Positions 45,136 to 53,725 of a stretch of 64,000 bases of DNA are shown here, in pieces. Within the stretch, counting starts at the first letter, position 1, and every line of letters starts with the position of its first letter. The stretch comes from Methanobacteriota archaeon. Its GTDB lineage: Archaea; Thermoplasmatota; Poseidoniia; Poseidoniales; Thalassarchaeaceae. Where the stretch lies: the NCBI GenBank assembly GCA_028355015.1, contig JAOMRN010000001.1:129229-193228 (forward strand). Reading direction: 5' to 3'. The notes under the pieces are model-generated. The model was not told where the DNA came from and searched no databases. It saw only the letters and a program-made list of their open reading frames with translations. Position numbers and translations under genes: made by a program.

Positions 45136-45293
45136 TTCTAATTCAAACTTTCCTCAACAATCTAGTATTCGCTTTCCTATATCAATTTTCCAATTCTTTC
45201 TATAAATCACTATCCTCAAAATCGTTTGGCTCTATTGTAAAAAGTGCTTTGATAAACTTCCAAAACATCTTACTCACTCCTTTCTCCCATTTT

Positions 45294-45962
45294 TTACCAC
45301 TCCTTTGTTCGAAACTTCCCCAATGTTCCATAGGTAATACTTTCTGATCTTGGGAAAGGAATTATGACGTTTTTCTCCATATTAATTCTTCTTAGATTTT
45401 GTATAATCCATTGGCAACCGAATGAAGCTGCATTGATGAAACCGAATTGAATATTTCCTGAATCTACTGCACCTTCATATTGACAAGATCCTGGCTTTTG
45501 ATTTTTATCTGTTACTTTATCTATTTCTAAATTTGTAACTGTGTTGTCAATAGCCATGAAATTATCTCCTCTACATCTCAGATCTACCCATCTACAATCT
45601 GTTGAATGAACGACCATTCTAGCTTCTGATGAATCTACGCAAACAACTATCAAGTCATTATCAACAATTTCTTGCTTATTTCTAACATCTTTGGCATGAG
45701 GAATTATTTCTAATCTTCCATTTTCAAAACATTTCAAATTCCTATAAGTTGCATTAACTTTCTTCTCACCTATGTTCGAAGGAAAAAATCTCTGATGAAA
45801 TATATTACTTTCTTCTACTTCATCCGAGTCATACAGATTAATTTTAATATTTTCAAATTTTGTTGCTAAGTCTCCTTGAGACAAAGATGGTATCAATAAT
45901 GCAGCTACATTTGAACCAATCCCACCGACCCCTATTATTGCTATACTTAATGCATGATTCAT
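45294..45962 (-). CDS. ThiF/MoeB/E1-like adenylyltransferase (minimal, 222 aa)
   Basis: It has the Rossmann loop 'IAIIGVGGIGSNVAALL' (45903-45938), then 'LYDSDEVEESNIFHQRFF', 'GEKKV' and 'DLIVVCVDSSEARMVV'. This is the canonical order of E1-superfamily motifs. The start overlaps the E2 stop as ATGA, and a GGAGGA Shine-Dalgarno sequence lies upstream. Confidence 0.8.
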   Translation of the reverse strand: MNHALSIAIIGVGGIGSNVAALLIPSLSQGDLATKFENIKINLYDSDEVEESNIFHQRFFPSNIGEKKVNATYRNLKCFENGRLEIIPHAKDVRNKQEIVDNDLIVVCVDSSEARMVVHSTDCRWVDLRCRGDNFMAIDNTVTNLEIDKVTDKNQKPGSCQYEGAVDSGNIQFGFINAASFGCQWIIQNLRRINMEKNVIIPFPRSESITYGTLGKFRTKEW

Positions 45963-46723
45963 TGAAAATCCTCCAAATTAGAAAATACATTTTCATATAA
46001 TTTCATCTGTGTTGTTTTTTGTGATTCTTCCCAATAACTCCAATCATTACTTATGTTTTTTAATATCAAATCTCTCTTATTTGCAAATGAAAATTCACTA
46101 TCAGTTTTATCCAATTCGATTAACCATTCACTATATTGACTTATTTTATTAAAATCTATACCTTCCGAATTATTACCTTGAAACCAACTAATTATAATTC
46201 CTTTAATCATAGCTGTTCTCAAAGTCCTCATGTTCCTATCAAGTACTGAAGTCATATCTTCAGACAAACAATTCATTACAGAAACAATATGATCACCGGA
46301 CCAAAAAAGATGGTTTACAGAAGTTTTTACATCTAAGCAAATATGCTGCCAGCGCCCCTCTGAATGATCATACCAATGTGTTTCGAAATGAATTAATTTT
46401 TGAAATGTGAATAAGATTGATTTTAGATTTCTGTGACTCAACTCAACTTTTTGAATTCTTTTAGATAATAGATTTGCAATTCTTGATTCGAAAGATAATG
46501 TTAATCTATAATTAATTCCAGATTCTCTGCCATTTATGAAAATATGACATTTTCTACTTGAGTCGTATCCATCATCTATCGTGCAATCAATCGCTGCTCC
46601 AATTCTTTTCCTCTCAGATTCAATCCATTCTAGTGATTTATTGTGTGCATCTAAATTAGGGGTAATATATCTAAAAATTCCATTCTTTCTCTCTGGTGTA
46701 TATTCTTCTTCATTTCCTATCAC
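45959..46723 (-). CDS. UBC-like E2 ubiquitin-conjugating-enzyme homolog
   Basis: 254 aa. 'KLIHFETHWYDHSEGRWQHICLDVKTSVNHLFWSGDHIVSVMNCL' parallels the eukaryotic E2 core 'F.T.I.HPNI...G.ICLDIL...WSPA..I..VL.SI'. The candidate catalytic Cys129 codon is at 46337-46339. The start is GTG with GGAGGTG 5 nt upstream. Confidence 0.65.
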   Translation of the reverse strand: MIGNEEEYTPERKNGIFRYITPNLDAHNKSLEWIESERKRIGAAIDCTIDDGYDSSRKCHIFINGRESGINYRLTLSFESRIANLLSKRIQKVELSHRNLKSILFTFQKLIHFETHWYDHSEGRWQHICLDVKTSVNHLFWSGDHIVSVMNCLSEDMTSVLDRNMRTLRTAMIKGIIISWFQGNNSEGIDFNKISQYSEWLIELDKTDSEFSFANKRDLILKNISNDWSYWEESQKTTQMKLYENVFSNLEDFQ

Positions 46724-46948
46724 TCAAACACCTCCTAAATTTTCGATTTTTTCTTCTTCCTCTAACACAAGAGCACGATATGCTGTAACTCCTGTCAAAA
46801 TTTCTCTTATCTTAATCAATATCGATAAGTTTCTTTCAATATAATTCGTTAATGATAAAATAGTATCTGGATCTAAATTATGTCCGTTATTTTCTATTAT
46901 CTGTATGATTAATTGTATATCATCTTTCATAGACAAATCTTCAATCAC
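46724..46948 (-). CDS. Small acidic protein of unknown function inside the Ubl operon
   Basis: 74 aa. The start is GTG with a GGAGGTGA Shine-Dalgarno sequence 6 nt upstream. It overlaps the JAB stop by 1 nt and abuts the E2 start. Confidence 0.5.
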   Translation of the reverse strand: MIEDLSMKDDIQLIIQIIENNGHNLDPDTILSLTNYIERNLSILIKIREILTGVTAYRALVLEEEEKIENLGGV

Positions 46949-47451
46949 TATTCATCACCTCCTAGATTATGATTAAGAATCCCATAATAGACCATTTTAG
47001 CTAATTTTGATTTGACATTATATGCCAGATATTCATTATGTCCTAATACGATGCATGAATTCATCACAGATTTCCATGCATTAATTGTCATCCAATCTCT
47101 TTCGCTGAAATATGCTCTTCCTGAAGGGTGAGTATGGATACAACATTTAATTGGTAATTGCATTTTATTACCATTAGTCAATTCATCTTCATGATTTATG
47201 AATGATACCAAAGAAGATGTCCCACTGCTAATGTATAAATCATCTTTATCATCAATAATAACCATCACTTCTATTTCATCTAGTTCGTCTACAGACGTTT
47301 TCCATATTGCTGTCATAAAGACTTCAGTGGAATTGTTAGGGAAGAGATATTCTATATCATCCGCCATATCATTATGTACATCTCGTATATGCTGCTTCCA
47401 ATCTACTTCATTTTCTATTATATTTTTATTTTTTATTTGTTTTATTTTCAT
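46948..47451 (-). CDS. JAB/MPN (JAMM) metallopeptidase
   Basis: 167 aa. 'HTHPSGRAYFSERD' (47095-47136) is an exact HxHx7Sx2D JAMM zinc motif. An AAGGAG Shine-Dalgarno sequence lies upstream of the ATG. Confidence 0.85.
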   Translation of the reverse strand: MKIKQIKNKNIIENEVDWKQHIRDVHNDMADDIEYLFPNNSTEVFMTAIWKTSVDELDEIEVMVIIDDKDDLYISSGTSSLVSFINHEDELTNGNKMQLPIKCCIHTHPSGRAYFSERDWMTINAWKSVMNSCIVLGHNEYLAYNVKSKLAKMVYYGILNHNLGGDE

Positions 47452-47544
47452 TTTATTTTCTCCTTTTTATTTATCCATCAACATAGAGTGTACCCTATCC
47501 TGACTTACGTTAATCCGGGCTCTTTCGAGCAAATAATCAGTCAA

Positions 47545-47754
47545 TCAACCGAACACAATACGTGGCATCACTCTCACGGTTCCAACTGTAGACCAATCTG
47601 CTTCAGCCAATTCTCCTGGCTCAATCATCTGTCCTCCAGCGAAAACCCAACGCTCATTGTCAGACACGAGATCAACAGTCTCTCTCTGAGTCAATAAAGC
47701 GATGGTGTGCCCCGTATGGTCAGCAATTTCGACTTTTGTCGTTATGTTTTCCAT
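47545..47754 (-). CDS. Ubiquitin-like beta-grasp protein (ThiS/MoaD-like) ending in a free C-terminal Gly
   Basis: 69 aa. The tail '...GTVRVMPRIVFG*' resembles the '..GD.V.I.PPV.GG' tails of ThiS/MoaD. The terminal Gly codon at 47548-47550 is followed directly by TGA. A GGAGGT Shine-Dalgarno sequence lies 7 nt upstream of the ATG. Genomic linkage to E1/E2/JAB supports the call. Confidence 0.6.
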   Translation of the reverse strand: MENITTKVEIADHTGHTIALLTQRETVDLVSDNERWVFAGGQMIEPGELAEADWSTVGTVRVMPRIVFG

Positions 47755-47846
47755 TACGTTACCTCCTTTTCTTCATATTTTTTTCTAGGTCTTGCACCTT
47801 CTCAAATGTCATTAACACGCCAACATTTACACATGTCCTCGTTCAA

Positions 47847-47963
47847 CTATTCCCAGTCTTGAGCTACAAATGCGCCACCAATCATTCCAGTGATTGGTGC
47901 ACAAGTCATTGTGCCCACGACCAAACCAACAGTTCCGCCTACGATCGCTTTTAGCAATCCCAT
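47847..47963 (-). CDS. Glycine-zipper hydrophobic micro-protein A (38 aa), unannotated in the ORF track
   Basis: My translation is MGLLKAIVGGTVGLVVGTMTCAPITGMIGGAFVAQDWE*. The ATG is at 47963-47961, with an AAGGAG Shine-Dalgarno sequence at 47975-47980 (minus-strand sense). It is preceded by a conserved leader repeat. Confidence 0.6.
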   Translation of the reverse strand: MGLLKAIVGGTVGLVVGTMTCAPITGMIGGAFVAQDWE

Positions 47964-47974
47964 AACATATCACG

Positions 47975-48080
47975 CTCCTTGTTTGTGTCGTCTCTGTGCC
48001 CGAGACACGAGCCCTGTTTCCTTTCTAACAGGAAGTCATCGCATTTGCGAATAGAGTGTGTTCGGTCACTCGTCACATCC
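47975..48080 (-). repeat. Leader repeat copy 1 (upstream of micro-protein A)
   Basis: It shares with copy 2 the blocks CTCCTTGT, CTGTGCCCGA, CCCTGTTTCCTTTC.AACAGGAAGTCATCG..TTTGCGAA and ACTCGTCA.AT (plus-strand reading). It contains the hairpin CCTGTT(48013-48018)/AACAGG(48027-48032). Confidence 0.8.
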
Positions 48081-48191
48081 GCCGTCATATCCGTCTATGC
48101 CGTCCCAGTTTCCTGCAAGCAGAATTGGGATTGCTAGCGGTCCAACAACGACCGCTGCAGTGCCTGCAGCTATCCATCTCAATATTCCTAT
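48066..48191 (-). CDS. Glycine-zipper hydrophobic micro-protein B (41 aa), paralog of A, with ATA at the position of A's ATG
   Basis: Translation (I/M)GILRWIAAGTAAVVVGPLAIPILLAGNWDGIDGYDGGCDE* aligns residue for residue with peptide A over the first ~18 aa. AAGGAGGTG lies upstream. The aligned start codon is ATA (48191-48189), and an in-frame TTG lies at 48182-48180. Confidence 0.45.
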   Translation of the reverse strand: MGILRWIAAGTAAVVVGPLAIPILLAGNWDGIDGYDGGCDE

Positions 48192-48199
48192 ATTTTCAC

Positions 48200-48307
48200 C
48201 TCCTTGTGTTATTTCACTTCTGTGCCCGAAGTTCAGGCCCTGTTTCCTTTCCAACAGGAAGTCATCGTGTTTGCGAAAAAAATCACGTCCGATTACTCGT
48301 CATATTT
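48200..48307 (-). repeat. Leader repeat copy 2 (upstream of micro-protein B)
   Basis: The same conserved blocks are offset by 225-227 nt from copy 1. The hairpin arms are identical and the loop differs by one base. Confidence 0.8.
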
Positions 48308-48405
48308 TCTATGTCATTCTGATTATCATCCGGAAAGAAATCCACTAGATTCTCTCCAGCAATTGCTAAGTATGCTAAACGCCATAAAAACTCTTTAATT
48401 CTCAT
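48283..48405 (-). CDS. Possible third micro-ORF (40 aa) overlapping the stop of the membrane-protein gene
   Basis: Translation is MRIKEFLWRLAYLAIAGENLVDFFPDDNQNDIENMTSNRT*. Its 3' end occupies the same position in leader copy 2 that the 3' end of peptide B occupies in leader copy 1. Confidence 0.25.
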   Translation of the reverse strand: MRIKEFLWRLAYLAIAGENLVDFFPDDNQNDIENMTSNRT

Positions 48406-49534
48406 TATGTTCTACCTCATCCTCAACCCAGACAGGGCGATTCATCCATACGAATACGATCAAAATCGTTGCTAATCCAATTACAATAAATGTCGAAAAT
48501 ATTGTACCATCAACAATCCACGCTACTGCTAGAATTGGATTTGAAAATAATCTGCCTTGATTTCTCGAGTATTCTCTAGGGCATCCTTCTAAATTTAATT
48601 TTTCAAACCCCCATTCAACTTCTTTTTTGAGAATCGGGAATAACACGGCTGTACCTCCGGTTATCATTACGATTCCAAAGAACCATGTAGACTCAAATAA
48701 CAACATCAACGCTGAAATAAAGGTTATAATCAAACCAATATTCACAAGAAATCTATCTTCAATTATACGCTCTAATATCCCCGGTACAGCAGCTCCTATC
48801 AATGTAGAGATAGCGATAATTCCTCCAAGCGAAATTATCTCGGGTTGGTCTGAAATCGCTATAGTACCGGTAAGAATAATCACAAGTCGAGAAATAGATA
48901 CACTGTTGTTTAGAAATCCCTCAAGGAACGCCAAGATGGCTGGATACTGAAAAGTATCGACCCACCTAAGATGATTTTTTGCTCTAGTTTCTTTTCCGTC
49001 AGAAATTATATCTTCTTCTCTTGAGATAATTATTAATGCGAATAAAAGGAAACTCAAAGACAGGATCAATAGCAGCCCAGAACCTAACCATTCAACAAAG
49101 AAAGCCGCAGCCATAATCAAGATTATTCCACTTGCTTTCTCAAAGCAATTCCAGAGCTTAAAATTCATATCTGATTGGTGCTGGAGTTTGTAGAAAGCTG
49201 GCCAAAACGAGCCCACATAGAATCCTGAGAAGACGCCTCCACAGAGAATAAAGATCAATTCTTCAAACTGCCATGCACAAATGAAAAATAAGAAAGAAAT
49301 AACTCGTAATTTCACCGAATTACTGATTATATTCCAATTGAAATTAATATTAGAAGCATTCAACAACCCTGATGTTGCAGTAGCCGCAATCAACATTGTA
49401 ATATTTAGAGCAAGCAGTCCTATATCTCCACTTATTTCGTAAGCTAATTTGTACCCCCCTATCGTCCAACCTGCCTTCTCTGCCGCCTGTATAAGCCATC
49501 TAATCCCATATATCTTGATTTTTCTATTATTCAT
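48395..49534 (-). CDS. Polytopic membrane protein (transporter-like, about 10-12 TM helices)
   Basis: 379 aa, almost entirely hydrophobic helices with one central charged loop ('SREEDIISDGKETRAKNH'). This gives an MFS-like two-halves layout, judged from topology only. Confidence 0.45.
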   Translation of the reverse strand: MNNRKIKIYGIRWLIQAAEKAGWTIGGYKLAYEISGDIGLLALNITMLIAATATSGLLNASNINFNWNIISNSVKLRVISFLFFICAWQFEELIFILCGGVFSGFYVGSFWPAFYKLQHQSDMNFKLWNCFEKASGIILIMAAAFFVEWLGSGLLLILSLSFLLFALIIISREEDIISDGKETRAKNHLRWVDTFQYPAILAFLEGFLNNSVSISRLVIILTGTIAISDQPEIISLGGIIAISTLIGAAVPGILERIIEDRFLVNIGLIITFISALMLLFESTWFFGIVMITGGTAVLFPILKKEVEWGFEKLNLEGCPREYSRNQGRLFSNPILAVAWIVDGTIFSTFIVIGLATILIVFVWMNRPVWVEDEVEHNEN

Positions 49535-49535
49535 T

Positions 49536-49760
49536 TCTTCACCTTTTTATTGTATCTATTATGTCATACCTAAATTTATTTTTACACGAAAATAAAACTT
49601 TTTTTCTTATCTTATCTATTATGTAATACCTTAGTTTTTGAAATCTCCGAAGAGAGAATCCTTCTTAAGTCTTTTATTATGTCATACCTAAATTTATTTT
49701 TTAATAATTGATATATTTTTTTCTTTTCATATCTAATATGTATTACCTTTTAATTAAAGT
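49536..49760 (+). repeat. Four direct ~59-bp tandem repeat units in the divergent intergenic region
   Basis: Core (T)ATCTATTATGT(C/A)ATACCT(A/T)A.TTT starts at 49557, 49617, 49675 and 49734 (spacings 60, 58 and 59). Units 1 and 3 share the identical stretch ATTATGTCATACCTAAATTTATTTTT. Each core is preceded by a T-rich/CTT tract. Confidence 0.85.
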
Positions 49761-49767
49761 TATAAAT
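49760..49767 (+). promoter_or_regulatory. Candidate archaeal TATA box for the RNA polymerase gene
   Basis: TTATAAAT is centred about 30 nt upstream of the ATG at 49795, with no Shine-Dalgarno sequence. This geometry fits a (near-)leaderless archaeal transcript. Confidence 0.3.
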
Positions 49768-49794
49768 CAGATATCTTTCCCAGAAAATGTTAGT

Positions 49795-52700
49795 ATGGAT
49801 AAATCAGAAGAAATTACCACCAAAGTCGTAGTTGATAACGATGAAGTCAGTATCAGTAATCTCATTCAGCTCCTTTCACTAGAAATTGCTAAAGGCACAG
49901 AAGAAAATGATTCATATAAAGGGGGCATTACTCAACAAGATATTGAAGCGTTCAAGCAGGAATTTTCTTCTAGTCAGAGATTTGACCTACATCTCATAAG
50001 ATCTTGGATAAAGACCTTGAAACAACACCAAAATAAAGAATCAGAAGTCTCTAGACGCGAATATTTCAATAATAATTATGAATCATCACTAGGGAAATTG
50101 TATGAATTACCTGAAAAAGAACCTGAAAAATCTTGGTATGATTGGCATATTCATGAAGGGCATAAACTTGGTTATCAACTAGAAGATTTGATGCACCTGA
50201 AATCTGATCTAAGGATTCTACGCCCCAAAAATGATTATTTATTTAAAGTCGCTCTTCAATCCCGAGTAGAAAAAATGGCGGAAGGAAATAGCTCAATTAA
50301 GATATTAGATGGTGATGTACGAAGGCGTGAACAATCGCAATCTGATGACACATCAAGGAAACTTATAACTTCTTTTTCAAAATCATTCAATAATGTGTTT
50401 TCAAATAAGATGGATAAATATGTTGTTCATAGTAACGGAACATCGAATACTTATTGTAACCTATCTATAAAAACCATAGAAGAAATCATTCAAACTTCAG
50501 ATGAAGAGGGGTTATTTGAGAAGATATCAAAAGTATGTGTCCGATTACTAATTAAGGAATCTAGAGAAAAAGAGAGAAAGTCAAGATGGGACAGAAAAAT
50601 GAAAAAGAAGACTGAGGGATATACTAAATATACGGATATATGCCTTATTGAGAAAAACTTTATCATAGGATTGTCGGAATATATCGAAGATAAATTAAAC
50701 AAAGGGTTTCAAAACAAAAAAGAAAGCCTTCAAGAAGATGGAAGATGGATTGGATTGATAAATGCTGACCAAATAAAATTGAATAATACCTTTCTACGCG
50801 CCTCGAGGATTTTTTCACAATTAATAATAGCAGCATTAAATTCTGAGGGATGGATTCAAAGAAGGGCGGGTACATATAATGATTTTTTGTTACATTTACC
50901 AGTCGATGATGATGACAAAGAATCAAAAAATAAGGTGTCAGGACAACATAGAAATATGATGTCTTTTTCTGATAAATTGAAAAAAGAAGTTGCCCCTTGT
51001 GAACTTAGAGATTTTAAAACACGAGAAGAAAATGCAATATTTAGAGTATTAAGGAATGACACGCATAGATACATGTATTGCTGCCCTAGTGATCATAAAA
51101 TTAGTCCTGAGAAAACATCGGGTGGCTACATCAATACAGATTCTAAATCCGGTAGCTCTGTTGGGCTTACTGTTACTAAAGAAAAAAAGATTAGTAAGAT
51201 TACTAATAAATCCTCTCTCTTTTCTTGTAGTAAAAAAAGGTTCGAATATAATAATGAATCTCTCAGAGCATTAAATATTCTTCAAAAAACACAATGGGAA
51301 ATAAATTATGATTTATTGCAGTTTATATCTCTATCAATTGATACTGAGCTTCAGGGTACCTCTTATGCGGATATTCAATTAAAAGAAATATTTAGAAAAT
51401 CATTCTATTATGATGAAGAAATTGAAAACATAAGAGATAGAGATAGACGTAGGTTTGAGAATATAGAGAGGCGTAAACGTTTAACATATATTGGAAGAAT
51501 CTTGAGTCATAATGCCAATGTATTTTGGCATTCATGGGCCTTTGATTGGCGAGGAAGATTAATTGCCAGAGCTCCCATTTTAAGTCCACAAAAATCAGAC
51601 ATCGATCGTTCACTGATTCGATTTAAGGAATGGAAAGAATTAGGCATTAATGGATGGAAATGGTTCAGGATATTTTTATTCAATTTTTGTAAAGAAGATC
51701 CTTATTGGCTCGATGACCAACCGTCAAAATCATTTTCTAAAGATGAAAAATGCAAATGGATTGATAGGAATAAATTAAGAATCAAATCATTAATTAATAA
51801 TATTGATGACCCTAAGGTAATCGCATATCTCGATTTAAATAAATCTCCAATGCCTAAATCTGAAACTTTTCAGAGAATTTCTGTATTGCTTGAATATAAA
51901 AGAATATTAGATGAATACAATGATAAAAAAGATTGGTCCAAAGTTACCTCTGGGCATCCAATTCACTTCGATGCTTCTTCAAATGGCTATCAGCATCTCT
52001 CTCTTCTAATAAATAATAAGCAATTAGCAAAAAAAGTTAACGTTTTACCGAATGAAGTAAAGAATGATATCTATCAAGAAGTTGCAGATCAAGCGATAGA
52101 GAATTGGGATAATAATCAAAGTAAACTTAAAAAATATTTATTAGAAAACTTCAACGAATTAGATAATGAACAGCTTAATTCTATCAAAAATTCTGTTTTT
52201 AATAGAAATTTAGCTAAATTACCTACTATGACTTCTATTTATGGTGCTAAAGACTATGAAAGTTGTTTCATTGGAAGTAACGGAAAAGGAAAACCTAAAT
52301 TTATCAAATCAGGAAAAGTTTGGGTTTGTTGCTGGCATGAAGATTCTCCAATATATCAGAATTTAAGTAAATTAAATAACATAAAATTTTTAGGTCCCAA
52401 TGGATATTTTTCTGAAGATAAGTTTGTTTCTCCAGATAAGAAAGTTTTGAGGCAAAATATATTTGTTGAAAATTTGATTACAGATTATAAAAAATCAATT
52501 GAAGAAGTCACAGGCGGTGCATATGAGCAATTGACTCAGAAATTAAAAAAACTTGTTAATAAAGGCAAAAAACCAGATATCAGTTGGAAACTAGATGATG
52601 GTTCCCAGATTTGGCATTATTATCCAGCGAAGCAAGTAGTTACTAATTATGATTCAACTTCATCTCTAAAATTACTTATCGATACAGATGCTCTGAATTT

Positions 52701-53718
52701 TTCACCGAAGAATAGGGTTGATATTTTACATAAATTAAATGAGTTATCGCACATTTACCCTATGTGTAAGATCGATGATAAATTTATTGAAGAAGCAATA
52801 ATGAATTACAATAAATGGGTTGGAAATGACGAAGATTTTTTTGGAAAGAAAATTGTTGAACTTAATAATAACCTATACATTGGAGAACCTACTTCTTCTA
52901 AATCTAAGTTGCCATGGAAGATTTTATCTCTAAGGTCAGAGGATATAATTTCATTAAAGGAAGTAGATATAAAATTAGAGAAAATCTATAAAAAAATTGG
53001 TAATACAAAAAAACCAGTAAAAAATGAAAAAAAGAAAAAAGAGAAGAAGATTCTACTTAAAAAGTTAGTAAATGAGCAGAGAAAATTAAAAGAAGAAAAA
53101 AAAGAATTAGAGAAATTAATTGATGAAGAACAAACTGATAGCGAGAAAGCGGAGTTAGAATTCCAACGCAGTAATGAAATTCATAATTATTGGGCGGCTA
53201 TATATTATCTCTTCAAAATGTACCCCAAATCTTCATCACAAGATTTACTCAGAGCTATAGAACAACATATGATTCGTAAATTAGAAGATTCCGATGATGA
53301 ATTTATCAAAGCCTGTAAAATGGCGTTTAATATATCGACTAAATGTAATTTCATTGATTATGATGGTAGGGCAGATAAAAGAAGAATTTTATCTGGAATT
53401 TCCCCTAATTTCATACATTCTCTAGATGCTTATCATATGAGATCTTCAATTATTAAATTTTCTGAATCTGTTAAAAACCCATCAATTTGGGCTGTTCATG
53501 ATTCCTTTGGAACACATGCCTGTGATATAGGAAGTTATATTGAAGTAATCAAAGAAATGTTTTTGGGAATGCATAAAGAAAAAGATTTGAACAAATGGTG
53601 TGAAGAAATATCAAAAGAAAATGGCATTGAAGTCAAAGAAGATTCAATTGGGGATCCAGATTTTCGTAACGAGTTAATTAATGGAGAAATTCAGATATCT
53701 GATTTTTTCTTAAGTTGA
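49795..53718 (+). CDS. T7/T3/mitochondrial-type single-subunit DNA-dependent RNA polymerase (about 1307 aa)
   Basis: 'WAFDWRGRL' (DWRGR at 51544-51558) matches T7 'DWRGRVY'. 'IHFDASSNGYQHLS' is motif A, with the Asp codon at 51970-51972 (T7 'DGSCSGIQHFS'). 'LAKLPTMTSIYGA' is motif B, with Lys at 52216 and Tyr at 52240 (T7 'TKRSVMTLAYGS'). 'SPNFIHSLDAYHMR' (53401-53442) matches T7 'APNFVHSQDGSHLR'. 'WAVHDSFGTH' is motif C, with Asp at 53500-53502. The C-terminal 'SDFFLS*' resembles T7 'DFAFA' and mitochondrial 'YFFS'. I prefer the ATG at 49795 over the TTG at 49708. Confidence 0.9.
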   Translation: MDKSEEITTKVVVDNDEVSISNLIQLLSLEIAKGTEENDSYKGGITQQDIEAFKQEFSSSQRFDLHLIRSWIKTLKQHQNKESEVSRREYFNNNYESSLGKLYELPEKEPEKSWYDWHIHEGHKLGYQLEDLMHLKSDLRILRPKNDYLFKVALQSRVEKMAEGNSSIKILDGDVRRREQSQSDDTSRKLITSFSKSFNNVFSNKMDKYVVHSNGTSNTYCNLSIKTIEEIIQTSDEEGLFEKISKVCVRLLIKESREKERKSRWDRKMKKKTEGYTKYTDICLIEKNFIIGLSEYIEDKLNKGFQNKKESLQEDGRWIGLINADQIKLNNTFLRASRIFSQLIIAALNSEGWIQRRAGTYNDFLLHLPVDDDDKESKNKVSGQHRNMMSFSDKLKKEVAPCELRDFKTREENAIFRVLRNDTHRYMYCCPSDHKISPEKTSGGYINTDSKSGSSVGLTVTKEKKISKITNKSSLFSCSKKRFEYNNESLRALNILQKTQWEINYDLLQFISLSIDTELQGTSYADIQLKEIFRKSFYYDEEIENIRDRDRRRFENIERRKRLTYIGRILSHNANVFWHSWAFDWRGRLIARAPILSPQKSDIDRSLIRFKEWKELGINGWKWFRIFLFNFCKEDPYWLDDQPSKSFSKDEKCKWIDRNKLRIKSLINNIDDPKVIAYLDLNKSPMPKSETFQRISVLLEYKRILDEYNDKKDWSKVTSGHPIHFDASSNGYQHLSLLINNKQLAKKVNVLPNEVKNDIYQEVADQAIENWDNNQSKLKKYLLENFNELDNEQLNSIKNSVFNRNLAKLPTMTSIYGAKDYESCFIGSNGKGKPKFIKSGKVWVCCWHEDSPIYQNLSKLNNIKFLGPNGYFSEDKFVSPDKKVLRQNIFVENLITDYKKSIEEVTGGAYEQLTQKLKKLVNKGKKPDISWKLDDGSQIWHYYPAKQVVTNYDSTSSLKLLIDTDALNFSPKNRVDILHKLNELSHIYPMCKIDDKFIEEAIMNYNKWVGNDEDFFGKKIVELNNNLYIGEPTSSKSKLPWKILSLRSEDIISLKEVDIKLEKIYKKIGNTKKPVKNEKKKKEKKILLKKLVNEQRKLKEEKKELEKLIDEEQTDSEKAELEFQRSNEIHNYWAAIYYLFKMYPKSSSQDLLRAIEQHMIRKLEDSDDEFIKACKMAFNISTKCNFIDYDGRADKRRILSGISPNFIHSLDAYHMRSSIIKFSESVKNPSIWAVHDSFGTHACDIGSYIEVIKEMFLGMHKEKDLNKWCEEISKENGIEVKEDSIGDPDFRNELINGEIQISDFFLS

Positions 53719-53725
53719 AGCTAAA

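Follow-up and report, generated by a model that had tools for sequence, protein, structure and literature searches.

A chromosomal island of a marine archaeon joining a predicted ubiquitin-like conjugation operon to a T7-type RNA polymerase and promoter-like repeats

The stretch of DNA analysed here (64 kb, referred to as the window) stems from a marine Group II archaeon (Poseidoniales) and harbours a strain-variable 8.6-kb insert at 45136-53725, which lies between the convergent stop codons of a 251-aa gene and a GT2 gene. Two arms diverge from a repeat-filled spacer, a plus-strand arm coding for a T7-type RNA polymerase and a minus-strand arm coding for a membrane protein, micro-ORFs and the genes of a ubiquitin-like protein (Ubl) system (Table 1). 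A previous sequence-only reading had described an AT-rich block flanked by an ABC exporter, an FGE-like gene, GT2 and PCNA. The identities of the exporter, GT2 and PCNA were confirmed, but the label FGE-like for the 251-aa gene found no Pfam match. GC content is 0.328 in the island compared to 0.383 in the left and 0.380 in the right flank, with 0.308 from E1 to JAB, 0.307 in the polymerase gene and 0.212 in the intergenic region. The segment with the Ubl and the micro-ORFs (47545-48290) reaches 0.469, so the block as a whole is AT-rich but not uniformly so.

Table 1. Features of the island in window coordinates, and repeat motifs of the polymerase lineages
Feature	Position	Strand	Remarks
E1-like adenylating enzyme, 222 aa	45294..45962	-	Single ThiF domain (Pfam ThiF)
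E2-like protein, 254 aa	45959..46723	-	Invariant Cys129 in ICLD, followed by WPGD
74-aa protein	46724..46948	-	Looks helical from its sequence
JAB/JAMM metallopeptidase, 167 aa	46948..47451	-	JAMM motif
Ubl, 69 aa	47545..47754	-	Beta-grasp model; terminal Gly (...RIVFG)
Micro-ORF 2, 38 aa	47847..47963	-	MGLLKAIVGGTVGLVVGTMTCAPITGMIGGAFVAQDWE; glycine zipper GxxxGxxxG
Leader 2	47993..48051	-	Second copy of structured 5' element; direct repeat
Micro-ORF 1, ~41 aa	48066..48191	-	(I)GILRWIAAGTAAVVVGPLAIPILLAGNWDGIDGYDGGCDE; start uncertain, conserved ATA or TTG
Leader 1	48219..48277	-	Structured 5' element, two hairpins; direct repeat
40-aa ORF	48283..48405	-	Status uncertain; overlaps MEMB stop codon
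MEMB, polytopic membrane protein, 379 aa	48395..49534	-	Possibly a divergent MFS-type transporter
Repeat P4	49557..49574	-	TTTAGGTATGACATAATA; promoter-like, repeat family; predicted +1 at ~49556, 22 nt before membrane-protein ATG
Repeat P3	49617..49634	-	CTAAGGTATTACATAATA; promoter-like, repeat family
Repeat P2	49675..49692	-	TTTAGGTATGACATAATA; promoter-like, repeat family
Repeat P1	49734..49751	-	AAGGTAATACATATTAGA; most degenerate copy, fourth member of the 59-bp family
TATA-like box	49760..49767	+	TTATAAAT; 28-35 nt upstream of polymerase ATG
T7-type single-subunit RNA polymerase	49795..53718	+	1307 aa from ATG 49795
Lineage motif, window and L027			TTAGGTATGACATAWTAGATA
Lineage motif, L030-36			TAAGGTCATAGATAWTAG
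Lineage motif, L035-42			TTTCTATTAAACAGTATAGGTGA
Lineage motif, L033/41/44			TTCATTTCACTGTATAGGAGA
Lineage motif, L007/40/43			TTCTATTATATTGTATAGAG
Lineage motif, group F			TCCTACACTATAGGT
Lineage motif, L008/10/82			GCGCCACATAACACATATG

The plus-strand gene had already been recognised as a single-subunit polymerase, and profile searches agree (PF00940, E 4.7e-41, 141.5 bits; PHROG 414 'RNA polymerase', E 5e-72). T7 RNA polymerase is the closest solved structure (E 1.7e-19), with FDaSsnGyQH falling on motif A and HDSFGT on motif C. Residues D726, R804, K808, Y816, G817, H1235 and D1236 of motifs A, B and C are invariant in 13 polymerase homologs, and dN/dS is 0.26 against locus L027. Judged by its family domain, its catalytic residues and purifying selection, the polymerase is intact and functional-looking. 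Alternative starts are an ATG at ~49738 (NCBI) and a TTG at 49708 (mechanical ORF). The TATA-like box is kept at an equal distance in L027, other lineages possess an analogous box (TTGAGTTAGTTTATTTAC), and it is presumed to be a promoter for the host RNA polymerase. On the plus strand upstream of the gene neither a Shine-Dalgarno sequence nor a T7-like repeat was found, whereas Shine-Dalgarno sequences are strong at the genes of the opposite arm. Expression of the polymerase from a TATA-like promoter, as proposed earlier, thus receives comparative support from the conserved box and from the lack of island repeats upstream.

In the Ubl operon, the tight coupling and the GGAGG-type Shine-Dalgarno sequences reported from the letters were both found; the C-terminal LGGV of the 74-aa protein, for which no family could be assigned in Pfam, NCBIfam and PHROG profile searches, falls on the GGAGGTG Shine-Dalgarno sequence that precedes the next gene. 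Among the proposed component families, the polymerase, E1, JAB and Ubl were supported by profile, motif or structure, and the E2 only moderately. The AlphaFold2 model of the Ubl (pLDDT 80.5) has a beta-beta-alpha-beta-beta-alpha-beta topology, its best Foldseek matches are a ubiquilin UBL, SUMO and di-ubiquitin (probability up to 0.98, TM 0.53), and its best profile match in PDB is ubiquitin (E 0.059). Ubl homologs occur in tandem or carry a C-terminal PGLVGG with a tail of 1-20 aa, and fusions of Ubl with E2-like proteins are seen in related loci. The JAB protein matches Prok-JAB below the Pfam cut-off of 25 (E 8.8e-5, 22.8 bits), and E...HTHPxxxAY(F/W)SxxD is found unchanged in 23 homologs. 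For the E2-like protein, no sequence-level match was obtained in Pfam, PDB or PADLOC; most of the top 50 PDB matches of its AlphaFold2 model (pLDDT 68.7) in Foldseek are UBC E2 enzymes, at weak values of E 0.18-0.9, which tentatively suggests an E2. The E1 matches Pfam ThiF above the cut-off (E 3.1e-12, 46.6 bits), PRTRC ThiF (2e-16) and ThiF/MoeB as best NCBIfam families, all under their cut-offs, UBA5 in PDB (E 4e-4) and the Cap2-type 'E1-E2' model of PADLOC (E 6e-7). Apart from this domain, the PADLOC defence models matched nothing in the island.

MEMB itself had no match in Pfam or PDB, and its family is small, with 19 representatives in a set of 1.8 billion proteins. One of 14 family members matched MFS_1 (E 1e-5), and MEMB is possibly a divergent MFS-type transporter. 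It adjoins the polymerase in 24 loci, and a distant homolog is kept in a polymerase-less sister island. The 40-aa ORF is conserved in L027 only; other lineages have a second promoter copy at this place. The micro-ORFs had been noted for their conserved leaders and a glycine zipper, and this description holds: the two 59-nt leaders are 85% identical to each other and nearly invariant across loci, with compensatory changes in three of five pairs of helix 2. Homologs of micro-ORF 1 follow the same leader in L027-L042, and micro-ORF 2 is 100% identical in L027, L035, L036, L039 and L042, loci whose polymerase is just 36-72% identical.

The four ~59-bp repeats seen in the spacer between the arms are likewise present, starting at 49539, 49599, 49657 and 49716 (spacing 60, 58 and 59 bp). 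Their 18-nt core has three matches in the window, all in the spacer, against a chance expectation of 0.2, and none of 100 shuffles reached three. The position and orientation of P4 are common to all window-type loci. Comparison of seven motif groups revealed that each polymerase lineage has its own repeat motif, several of which contain the T7 core CACTATAGG; it is shared at -7 to +2 by the group F motif and T7 phi10. The motif of the window is the least T7-like of the series. Lineage motifs invariably share the orientation of the next gene and stop 8-30 nt short of its start codon, their copy number varies from one to four between lineages, single copies also stand directly before downstream genes, and at least 12 loci have a second copy directly after the membrane gene. 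Across group F loci as long as 22 kb, the motif is confined to the sites that follow the polymerase stop codon and precede each of the E2-like genes downstream. Among 117 loci compared, the window motif matches only L027-29, which have the nearest polymerases, and one site with three mismatches inside L042 that is read as chance; it is absent from polymerase-less sister islands and empty sites. Based on resemblance, position and co-variation with the polymerase lineage, the four repeats are most readily explained as promoters recognised by the polymerase of the island. The idea that this enzyme drives the conjugation arm is supported comparatively, since lineage-specific T7-like repeats face that arm and are missing where the polymerase is missing.

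Homologous polymerase loci (99, almost all from Poseidoniales or marine metagenomes) contain Ubl-system genes in 50 cases, and Ubl and E1 are both present in 33. Where at least 5 kb is available on one side, Ubl/E1/JAB/E2-like genes accompany the polymerase in 25 of 30 Poseidoniales loci, another partner (C5) in four and neither in one. The two arms, whose co-occurrence in other genomes had been put up as a check, are therefore found together, and the link is kept across deep divergence. Ubl cassettes of the same family without polymerase exist as well (L107-L112, L117), so the cassette can do without it. Group F modules include an AAA ATPase and two phosphatases. In ~100 loci no replication or virion genes were found, the polymerase being the only match to PHROGs, and 2.9 million viral contigs yielded only one distant match. 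No integrase or viral genes were found beside the module, which sits in the chromosome among housekeeping genes.

Six sister-strain contigs with identical PCNA represent the empty site, with GT2 and the 251-aa gene only 2 bp apart, which answers the earlier question of whether the left and right neighbours are directly adjacent elsewhere. Misassembly can be dismissed, as both junctions are spanned in three independent metagenome assemblies (L027-L029). Composition, assembly, co-occurrence and component families, on which the sequence-only reading had staked its case beforehand, all spoke for it. Far from the island, the flanks are more than 99% identical to those of the empty-site strains, and identity drops at the junctions to 90% (left) and 84% (right); exchange of the island took place by homologous recombination in the flanks, not by integrase insertion. 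The same site may be empty, carry either of two polymerase alleles or hold an unrelated 673-aa gene, and near-identical strains differ in island presence and alleles. The island is also mosaic, dS being 0.55 in the polymerase gene and 0.01-0.02 in E1/E2/JAB. In other lineages related modules are located at other chromosomal sites, and one related Ubl/E1 cassette without polymerase adjoins a NACHT-type STAND NTPase. Site states, mosaicism, other sites and this neighbour are counted as conflict-type behaviour.

From these sequence comparisons, we consider it fairly likely that the island is a portable, self-transcribing two-stage cassette for Ubl conjugation, and most plausibly a conflict or antiviral module. 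Two-stage expression is supported by the comparative evidence: the polymerase gene would be read from the conserved TATA-like box by the RNA polymerase of the archaeal host, and the T7-type polymerase would then recognise its own T7-like promoters, four tandem copies at 49557-49751 on the minus strand. From these repeats the opposite arm would be read into one polycistronic RNA of ~4.3 kb, carrying in order the possibly MFS-like membrane protein, two glycine-zipper micro-proteins each with a structured leader, Ubl, JAB, the 74-aa protein, E2 and E1, the final genes being translationally coupled. Going by knowledge of the families, the homodimer-type E1 would adenylate the C-terminal glycine of the Ubl, which would pass to Cys129 of the E2-like protein and on to target proteins, and the JAB peptidase would trim or remove it. 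Such a system would shield expression from host transcription or raise it above the level that the latter provides, and the cassette would spread and be reshuffled among Poseidoniales strains by homologous recombination. Its biological role is probably antiviral or another conflict function, analogous to bacterial Bil/Bub, and this is the weakest step of the proposal.

The module could also be a cellular regulatory or stress-response Ubl system, similar to SAMPylation or a Ca2+-responsive bacterial Ubl, and thus an accessory trait with no conflict role, which appears rather unlikely. The chromosomal position among housekeeping genes without integrase or viral genes would be in favour, the ATPase and phosphatases of group F suggest signalling or proteostasis, and some bacterial Bub/Bil-type operons have been discussed as stress-responsive (PMC11601603). 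However, presence/absence and allele swaps among near-identical strains, the AT-rich composition, the different chromosomal sites and the STAND NTPase next to one relative speak against it, and routine regulation would hardly call for an orthogonal polymerase of its own. Unlikely, too, is an archaeocin/RiPP-type peptide cassette, in which the micro-proteins would be precursors or toxins that the E1-like enzyme, JAB and the beta-grasp protein modify or process, the MFS-like membrane protein would export them or give immunity and the polymerase would only boost expression. In microcin C7 biosynthesis E1-like enzymes adenylate peptide C-termini (MccB; PaaA is likewise E1-like), and ThiF/MoeB-type adenylating enzymes are the best matches of the island E1. 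The micro-ORFs, moreover, are the most conserved island part and always accompany the membrane protein, one relative of which matches MFS_1. Yet the micro-proteins lack a leader or cleavage motif and resemble transmembrane helices, and in many related loci with a Ubl system, such as group F, neither micro-ORFs nor the membrane protein were detected. The island has an E2-like protein with an invariant Cys, and features characteristic of protein conjugation are seen in the beta-grasp fold and G/GG terminus of the Ubl and, in related loci, in tandem Ubls and fusions of Ubl with E2-like proteins.

Another explanation concerns the repeats, which might be iterons, regulator-binding sites or a relic plasmid or virus origin, with the host RNA polymerase reading the Ubl arm and the polymerase linkage left over from a decayed T7-like element. 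Tandem ~59-bp repeats in an AT-rich spacer do look iteron-like, the window motif is loosely T7-like at most, polymerase-less islands keep the Ubl arm and may have other means of expression, and viruses are the typical carriers of T7-type polymerases. We regard it as very improbable nevertheless: copy number falls to one in some lineages, single co-oriented copies lie 8-30 nt away from a start codon, the motifs change along with the polymerase lineage and are lost together with the polymerase, and several lineages have the exact T7 core. The scarcity of viral relatives, the ~100 loci devoid of replication or virion genes and an intact polymerase under purifying selection also speak against this reading of the repeats.

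No earlier description of such a cassette was found in the literature, and a Ubl-conjugation cassette with a private T7-type polymerase in an archaeon seems not to have been described before. Archaeal Ubl systems are represented by SAMP/UbaA/HvJAMM1, without E2, and by the Caldiarchaeum-type Ub-E1-E2-RING-Rpn11 operon with a RING E3 and true ubiquitin. To our knowledge, neither has a dedicated polymerase. The island shares with them the archaeal host, a Gly-ending beta-grasp modifier, a ThiF-type E1 and a JAMM peptidase, but its Ubl matches ubiquitin at just E 0.059. The same four activities (Ubl, E2, JAB peptidase, E1) are united in bacterial Bil (BilABCD)/Bub, which are also sparse and strain-variable and whose Ubls may be tandem or tailed. 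The gene order differs (Ubl-JAB-74aa-E2-E1 versus Ubl-E2-DUB-E1), as does the E1, a 222-aa single adenylation domain instead of the two-domain inactive-plus-active form of Bil. Unlike Bil, the island E2 is without the Cys...His (CEHH) signature; PADLOC models match nothing but the Cap2-type E1, and the membrane protein, micro-proteins, private polymerase and archaeal host are additional. PRTRC (ParB-related, ThiF-related) and other bacterial E1/JAB/Ubl cassettes likewise combine an E1 and a JAB with a small beta-grasp protein on DNA that is transferred horizontally, and PRTRC ThiF is the best NCBIfam match of the island E1, though at 60 bits against a cut-off of 144.75; the island has an E2 and no ParB-like gene. 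With type II CBASS Cap2/Cap3, it has in common the weak 'E1-E2' match and a JAB peptidase partner, whereas its E1 and E2 are separate, its Ubl is free and a CD-NTase or CBASS effector is absent.

The phage T7/T3/SP6 module (Autographiviridae) has a polymerase of the same family with the same catalytic motifs, and its ~23-bp promoters are of the type predicted for the island, some lineages having the identical -7 to +2 core. In T7, transcription by the host enzyme yields the phage polymerase, and the latter goes on to transcribe the phage genes; this two-stage logic matches that proposed for the island. In contrast to T7, the host is archaeal, the context is chromosomal and non-viral, without virion or replication genes, and the cargo is a Ubl-conjugation operon with membrane proteins. 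The best phage relatives share ~26% identity with the island polymerase over 36% of the protein, which is 1307 aa long compared to 883 in T7.

What appears to be new here is a Ubl-conjugation cassette that would be served by an orthogonal T7-type driver in an abundant marine archaeon. The island encoding both (45136-53725, between a 251-aa gene and GT2) is an insertion in the archaeal chromosome and not an assembly artefact. At this site, a polymerase-type island is present in three independent assemblies (L027-L029), each of which spans both junctions, and the flanking genes encode PCNA, TFS, fibrillarin, Nop56-type and TBP-like proteins. In six metagenome contigs encoding an identical PCNA the site is empty, with GT2 and the 251-aa gene lying 2 bp apart. 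The ORF map agrees with the gene layout of the sequence-only reading (see table), and the translational coupling with strong Shine-Dalgarno sequences that it described was found at Ubl, JAB, the 74-aa protein, E2 and E1, as GGAGGT, GGAGGTG and GGAGGA together with abutting or overlapping stop and start codons. The AT-rich character of the block was borne out overall (GC 0.328 for 45136-53725 versus 0.383 and 0.380 in the flanks), except for segment 47545-48290, which has a GC content of 0.469. The label "FGE-like" for the 251-aa left neighbour was not confirmed, as this protein has no Pfam match.

Features of the island, from the ORF map (window positions)
Feature	Position	Strand	Remark
43-aa ORF	45200-45331	-	runs into the end of E1; sits in the 158-bp spacer that precedes the left junction; annotated as a gene in several sister assemblies
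E1	45294-45962	-	
254-aa E2-like protein	45959-46723	-	
74-aa protein	46724-46948	-	
JAB	46948-47451	-	
69-aa protein (Ubl)	47545-47754	-	upstream lies a GC-rich stretch with micro-ORFs
379-aa membrane protein (MEMB)	48395-49534	-	
Long ORF (polymerase)	ends 53718	+	

A third state of the site was found in six polymerase-less sister islands (L107-L112; L107:5064-8193), in which JAB, the 74-aa protein, E2 and E1 are kept at 98% nucleotide identity, together with a very distant MEMB homolog (hhalign probability 94%), and an unrelated 673-aa Lys/Asn-rich protein takes the place of the polymerase. This protein has no match in Pfam, NCBIfam, PHROGs or the PDB, and a cryptic polymerase was rejected for lack of similarity (hhalign probability 0.1%); it may be an alternative driver or an effector. 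Identity to the strains with the empty site exceeds 99% far away and drops towards the junctions, reaching 90% at the left one and 84% at the right one, and this gradient points to exchange by homologous recombination in the flanks. Site-specific integration was rejected because of the same gradient and because neither a target-site duplication nor, with ARAGORN, a tRNA was found at the junctions; at gathering threshold, Rfam gave two tRNAs only in the window. Synonymous divergence between the window and L027 is unequal across the parts of the island, with dS 0.007-0.02 for E1, E2 and JAB, rising to 0.10 in the membrane protein gene and 0.55 in the polymerase gene, so that the island is best described as a recombinational mosaic. 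The polymerase has a dN/dS of 0.26 in the same comparison, which indicates purifying selection; together with the dS of 0.55, it led to the rejection of positive selection as the cause of its fast divergence in favour of an allele swap by recombination. A prophage remnant or another viral origin was likewise rejected, since IMG/VR held one distant match, identities in the phage database did not exceed 27%, and among the island proteins PHROGs matched the polymerase only; no integrase, virion or replication genes were found.

By its domain and catalytic residues, the 1307-aa polymerase is placed in the T7-like single-subunit RNA polymerase family. It scores 141.5 bits against PF00940 (cut-off 22) and matches PHROG 414 with an E-value of 5e-72. 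Its best solved relative is T7 RNA polymerase, and its motif A (FDASSNGYQH) and motif C (HDSFGT) align with T7 D537 and D812. Residues D726, R804, K808, Y816, G817 and D1236, spread over motifs A, B and C, are invariant in 13 homologs, and phage relatives are about 26% identical across 36% of the protein. Single-subunit T7-type RNA polymerases occur in phages, organelles and organellar plasmids, and we are not aware of one native to an archaeal chromosome. A search of open-access full-text literature, in which absence is no proof, found no report of a single-subunit polymerase in archaea, in Poseidoniales or tied to Ubl operons. In one homolog (P0009), SAP domains (PF02037, PF18953) are fused to the RNA polymerase domain.

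The polymerase and the Ubl system keep company far beyond this site. Scanning species-representative genomes and metagenomes with a polymerase profile gave 99 loci, one distant viral contig (IMG/VR) being set aside, and almost all organism-named loci are from Poseidoniales, of both families. Ubl-system genes were detected in 50 of the 99 by tblastn with the island proteins, and Ubl and E1 together in 33. Restricting the count to the 30 loci that extend 5 kb or more to one side gives 25 with the Ubl system, four with a different conserved partner (C5) and one with neither, which upholds the co-occurrence of the two arms on which the sequence-only reading had made its hypothesis depend. Besides the divergent arrangement of the window, there are loci with polymerase>Ubl>E2>E1 and others with polymerase>C1>Ubl>E1>JAB, in which genes for an AAA ATPase and two phosphatases come next. 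Nor is the chromosomal site constant: modules were found between xseAB and katG, beside an intron-containing tRNA and, on an 819-kb contig, between photolyase and carotenoid genes. As the linkage has outlived both rearrangement and deep divergence (polymerase identity down to about 25-30%), it can be argued that polymerase and Ubl system form a functional unit.

In a distant polymerase subgroup (L019-L025, L095-L104), the polymerase is always followed by C5, a protein of about 410 aa without a family match, and not by the Ubl system, which suggests that the polymerase as a driver serves more than one kind of cargo. In group F, a polymerase lineage with its own promoter-like motif, the genes beyond JAB (L016:17664-22524, L113:11899-16877, L077) encode an AAA ATPase, a dual-specificity-type phosphatase, a calcineurin-like phosphoesterase and several small proteins without a family. 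Intron-containing tRNA genes, identified by Rfam and missed by ARAGORN, lie 120 bp to 8 kb upstream of the group F polymerase gene in four loci (L015:46-144, L017:1571-1669, L016:187-283, L018:2345-2443), which marks the tRNA neighbourhood as a hotspot of the module in this group.

Of the component families assigned by the sequence-only reading, polymerase, E1, the JAB motif and the Ubl fold were corroborated, and E2 was moderately supported, by weak PDB matches and an invariant Cys. E1 is above the Pfam threshold for ThiF and has a single adenylation domain (222 aa, ThiF at residues 5-174); its nearest NCBIfam models are PRTRC-ThiF, ThiF and MoeB, all under their cut-offs, and its best PDB match is UBA5. 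A conserved Cys of E1 lies in GSCQ. JAB scores 22.8 in Pfam, just under the cut-off of 25. Judged by sequence, it has the JAMM/MPN+ metallopeptidase motif E...HxHx7Sx2D, in the window as HTHPSGRAYFSERD, and E...HTHPx7SxxD including the upstream Glu is invariant in 23 homologs. Neither JAB nor E2 was matched in PDB sequence and profile searches, and Ubl, E2, the 74-aa protein, MEMB and the proteins C1, C5, C6, C8 and C25 have no match in Pfam, NCBIfam or PHROGs. The AlphaFold2 model of Ubl, built from 27 homologs, has a pLDDT of 80.5 and beta-grasp topology, with the ubiquilin UBL, SUMO and di-ubiquitin as best PDB matches (probability up to 0.98). Since the terminal Gly (G69) is invariant, and Ubls of other lineages end in PGLVGG plus a tail of 1-20 aa or form a tandem Ubl-Ubl fused to an E2-like domain, the model is that of a beta-grasp modifier with an exposed or exposable C-terminal Gly.

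The 254-aa protein is a likely rather than a proven E2. Its Cys129, within ICLD, is invariant and followed by WPGD and TLR, and the alignment has no HPN motif before the Cys. The sequence ICLD...WPGD resembles the ICLDIL...W.P motif of E2 enzymes. The model (pLDDT 68.7) finds UBC E2 enzymes as most of its top 50 PDB matches, all of them weak (E 0.18-0.9, TM 0.3-0.4). C1, a 430-aa protein of other lineages with a four-Cys zinc-ribbon-like N-terminus, has the same Cys...PxGD...S..L..D segment (hhalign E 0.002). The 74-aa protein ends in ...NLGGV and was considered as a second modifier; this was rejected as unsupported, because the GGAGGTG that encodes its Gly-Gly serves the next gene as Shine-Dalgarno sequence (46724-46740). 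The end of JAB, ...NLGGDE, is explained in the same way (46930-46948), so that a C-terminal GG is here not by itself evidence of a Ubl modifier.

The remainder of this arm consists of the membrane gene, two micro-ORFs and their leaders. MEMB belongs to a tiny family of 19 representatives; one of 14 members matches MFS_1 (E 1e-5), the window protein is without such a match, and sequence and profile searches of the PDB gave nothing. Micro-ORF 2 (MGLLKAIVGGTVGLVVG...) has a GxxxGxxxG zipper, and micro-ORF 1 is its paralog, with a conserved ATA (48183-48191, minus strand) at the position of the paralog's ATG. This ATA stands at the proper distance from a GGAGGTG Shine-Dalgarno sequence and is kept in five loci; translation starts either at this non-canonical codon or at a downstream TTG. 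A conserved leader, some 60 nt long and likewise present in L027-L042, precedes each micro-ORF (47993-48051 and 48219-48277, minus strand), with a CCTGTT-N8-AACAGG hairpin and a 5-bp stem closed by an invariant GGGYACA loop. Helix 2 has compensatory changes in three of five pairs and is fully paired in all 10 sequences. It is on this covariation that the structure rests, as the folding energy is unremarkable (z -1.2 to -1.5). Rfam gave nothing credible over 47400-49900 at E-values up to 5, meaning that the leaders belong to no known RNA family; they could be elements of processing, stability or translational control. The stretch 47750-48230, which spans leaders, micro-ORF 2 and the sequence leading up to the Ubl gene, is about 90-100% identical at the nucleotide level to L035, L039 and L042. 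In these loci, protein identity to the window is only 37% for the polymerase and about 76% for E2. The conservation of this GC-rich stretch (0.47) reflects either recent spread by recombination or nucleotide-level constraint.

Compared with known systems, the cassette would function as a T7 transcription module coupled to an Ubl operon of Bil/Bub-like type. As in Bil, a Ubl, an E2 (here moderately supported), a JAB-type peptidase and an E1 are encoded together. However, Bil has the order Ubl-E2-DUB-E1, whereas the window has Ubl-JAB-74aa-E2-E1; the E1 of Bil, BilD, combines an inactive and an active adenylation domain, whereas the 222-aa window E1 has one ThiF domain; and Bil E2 has a catalytic Cys with an adjacent conserved His (CEHH-type), whereas Cys129 of the window protein is followed by invariant W141, P142 and D144 and no His. 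Membership in Bil was rejected on gene order, E1 architecture and E2 signature, and no PADLOC defence model was matched apart from a Cap2-type E1 domain (E 6e-7). Type II CBASS (Cap2/Cap3) was rejected, with no CD-NTase, effector or E2-E1 fusion in the island and E1 and E2 encoded separately. A PRTRC cassette was rejected too, as ThiF reaches 60 bits against a TIGR03736 cut-off of 144.75 and there is no ParB-like gene.

The four repeat copies in the spacer between the arms start at 49539, 49599, 49657 and 49716 (repeat search) and are best explained, on sequence grounds, as promoters of the island's own polymerase; the rival view is that they are not promoters. Their 18-nt core TTTAGGTATGACATAATA has three matches in the 64-kb window, all in the spacer, with 0.2 expected by chance and three reached in none of 100 shuffles. 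The group F motif TCCTACACTATAGGT lies on the coding strand just past the polymerase stop codon and directly before each C1 gene, and nowhere else in up to 22 kb; within it, CACTATAGG agrees exactly with positions -7 to +2 of the phi10 promoter in the T7 record. All other polymerase lineages have their own variants in the same places, among them TTCATTTCACTGTATAGGAGA, TTTCTATTAAACAGTATAGGTGA, TTCTATTATATTGTATAGAG, TAAGGTCATAGATAATAG and GCGCCACATAACACATATG, and the variant of the window is TTTAGGTATGACATAATAGATA. Across lineages, every motif points the same way as the gene that follows it and stops 8-30 nt short of that gene's start codon. The spacer has one to four copies, and in at least 12 loci an extra copy follows right after the membrane gene, before the first leader and micro-ORF. 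When 117 loci were searched, the window motif was found in the three with the closest polymerase (L027-L029) and absent from the polymerase-less sister islands and empty sites; one match with three mismatches inside L042 was taken to be chance. Putative cognate promoters of about 20 bp thus co-vary with the enzyme at the level of sequence. No copy was found upstream of a polymerase gene on its own strand, and no Shine-Dalgarno sequence before it. A conserved TATA-like box is present 25-40 nt 5' of the polymerase ATG, as TTATAAAT at 49760-49767 in the window and as TTGAGTTAGTTTATTTAC in group F. A scan for sigma-70 promoters and terminators, a promoter model not relevant to archaea, stayed at the level of shuffled sequence. 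The lineage-specificity and orientation of the motifs, their absence where the polymerase is missing and the TATA-like box before the polymerase gene fit a two-stage cascade, in which host polymerase would make the T7-type polymerase and the latter would transcribe the effector arm. As far as sequence comparison goes, this part of the sequence-only reading was supported.

What the comparison shows is the gene content, the linkage and a promoter-like architecture. From what is known of the families, E1 would adenylate the terminal Gly of Ubl, which would be passed to Cys129 of E2 and then to targets, and JAB would trim tails or reverse conjugation; since Ubl already ends in Gly in the window lineage, JAB would there be mainly deconjugating. 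What the cassette is for is the weakest step. A conflict or antiviral function is favoured over the rivals, a peptide-export or archaeocin cassette and a stress system outside conflict. Several observations favour a conflict role: near-identical strains differ by presence/absence and by allele swapping, the composition is atypical, several chromosomal sites are used, a NACHT-type NTPase lies beside a related polymerase-less Ubl/E1 cassette, and there is the functional analogy to Bil/Bub. With a polymerase of its own, the cassette could be portable between hosts, and could stay expressed or be amplified when host transcription is compromised.

Taken together, these points allow a joint reading that we put forward tentatively, as possible rather than probable: Poseidoniales would have a native T7-type RNA polymerase family, the first in Archaea, acting as trigger and amplifier of an immune cassette in the manner of a swappable driver. 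A host-type promoter, possibly responsive to infection or stress, would make the polymerase, which would fire at its private T7-like promoters and yield a burst of membrane-active proteins and of a Ubl tagging machine acting on viral or host proteins. Such expression would not depend on the host transcription apparatus and would be immune to its takeover, and the polymerase-promoter pair would be an exchangeable module swapped between cassettes by recombination.

The key prediction, specific transcription from one protein and a promoter of about 25 bp, would, if true, be a first for Archaea, and it is cheap to test. Poseidoniales are among the most abundant planktonic archaea, and a conserved single-subunit polymerase family with recognisable promoters in archaea would surprise specialists in archaeal transcription and give a new outgroup for the origin of mitochondrial RNA polymerase. 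Bil/Bub-type Ubl cassettes would extend to an abundant uncultured marine archaeal order, and a horizontally mobile cassette bringing its own orthogonal transcription system would be a new design principle. If the promoters are confirmed, new orthogonal polymerase-promoter pairs would become available; at least seven different specificities can be made out among the loci studied. The structured leader RNA and the ultra-conserved glycine-zipper peptides are further uncharacterised parts.

Relatives of the Ubl genes also occur apart from the polymerase. A Ubl and E1 (ThiF) cassette without polymerase lies between unassigned 249-aa and 238-aa genes (L117:396-11752). Its context resembles a defence island, with a 954-aa NACHT/NB-ARC STAND NTPase and a metallophosphoesterase encoded within a few kb. 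A 145-aa Ubl relative (L116:10001-10438) is encoded on many contigs, where its surroundings are conserved housekeeping genes and include no E1, JAB or polymerase; it probably has two beta-grasp domains and may be a core-genome paralog with another role.
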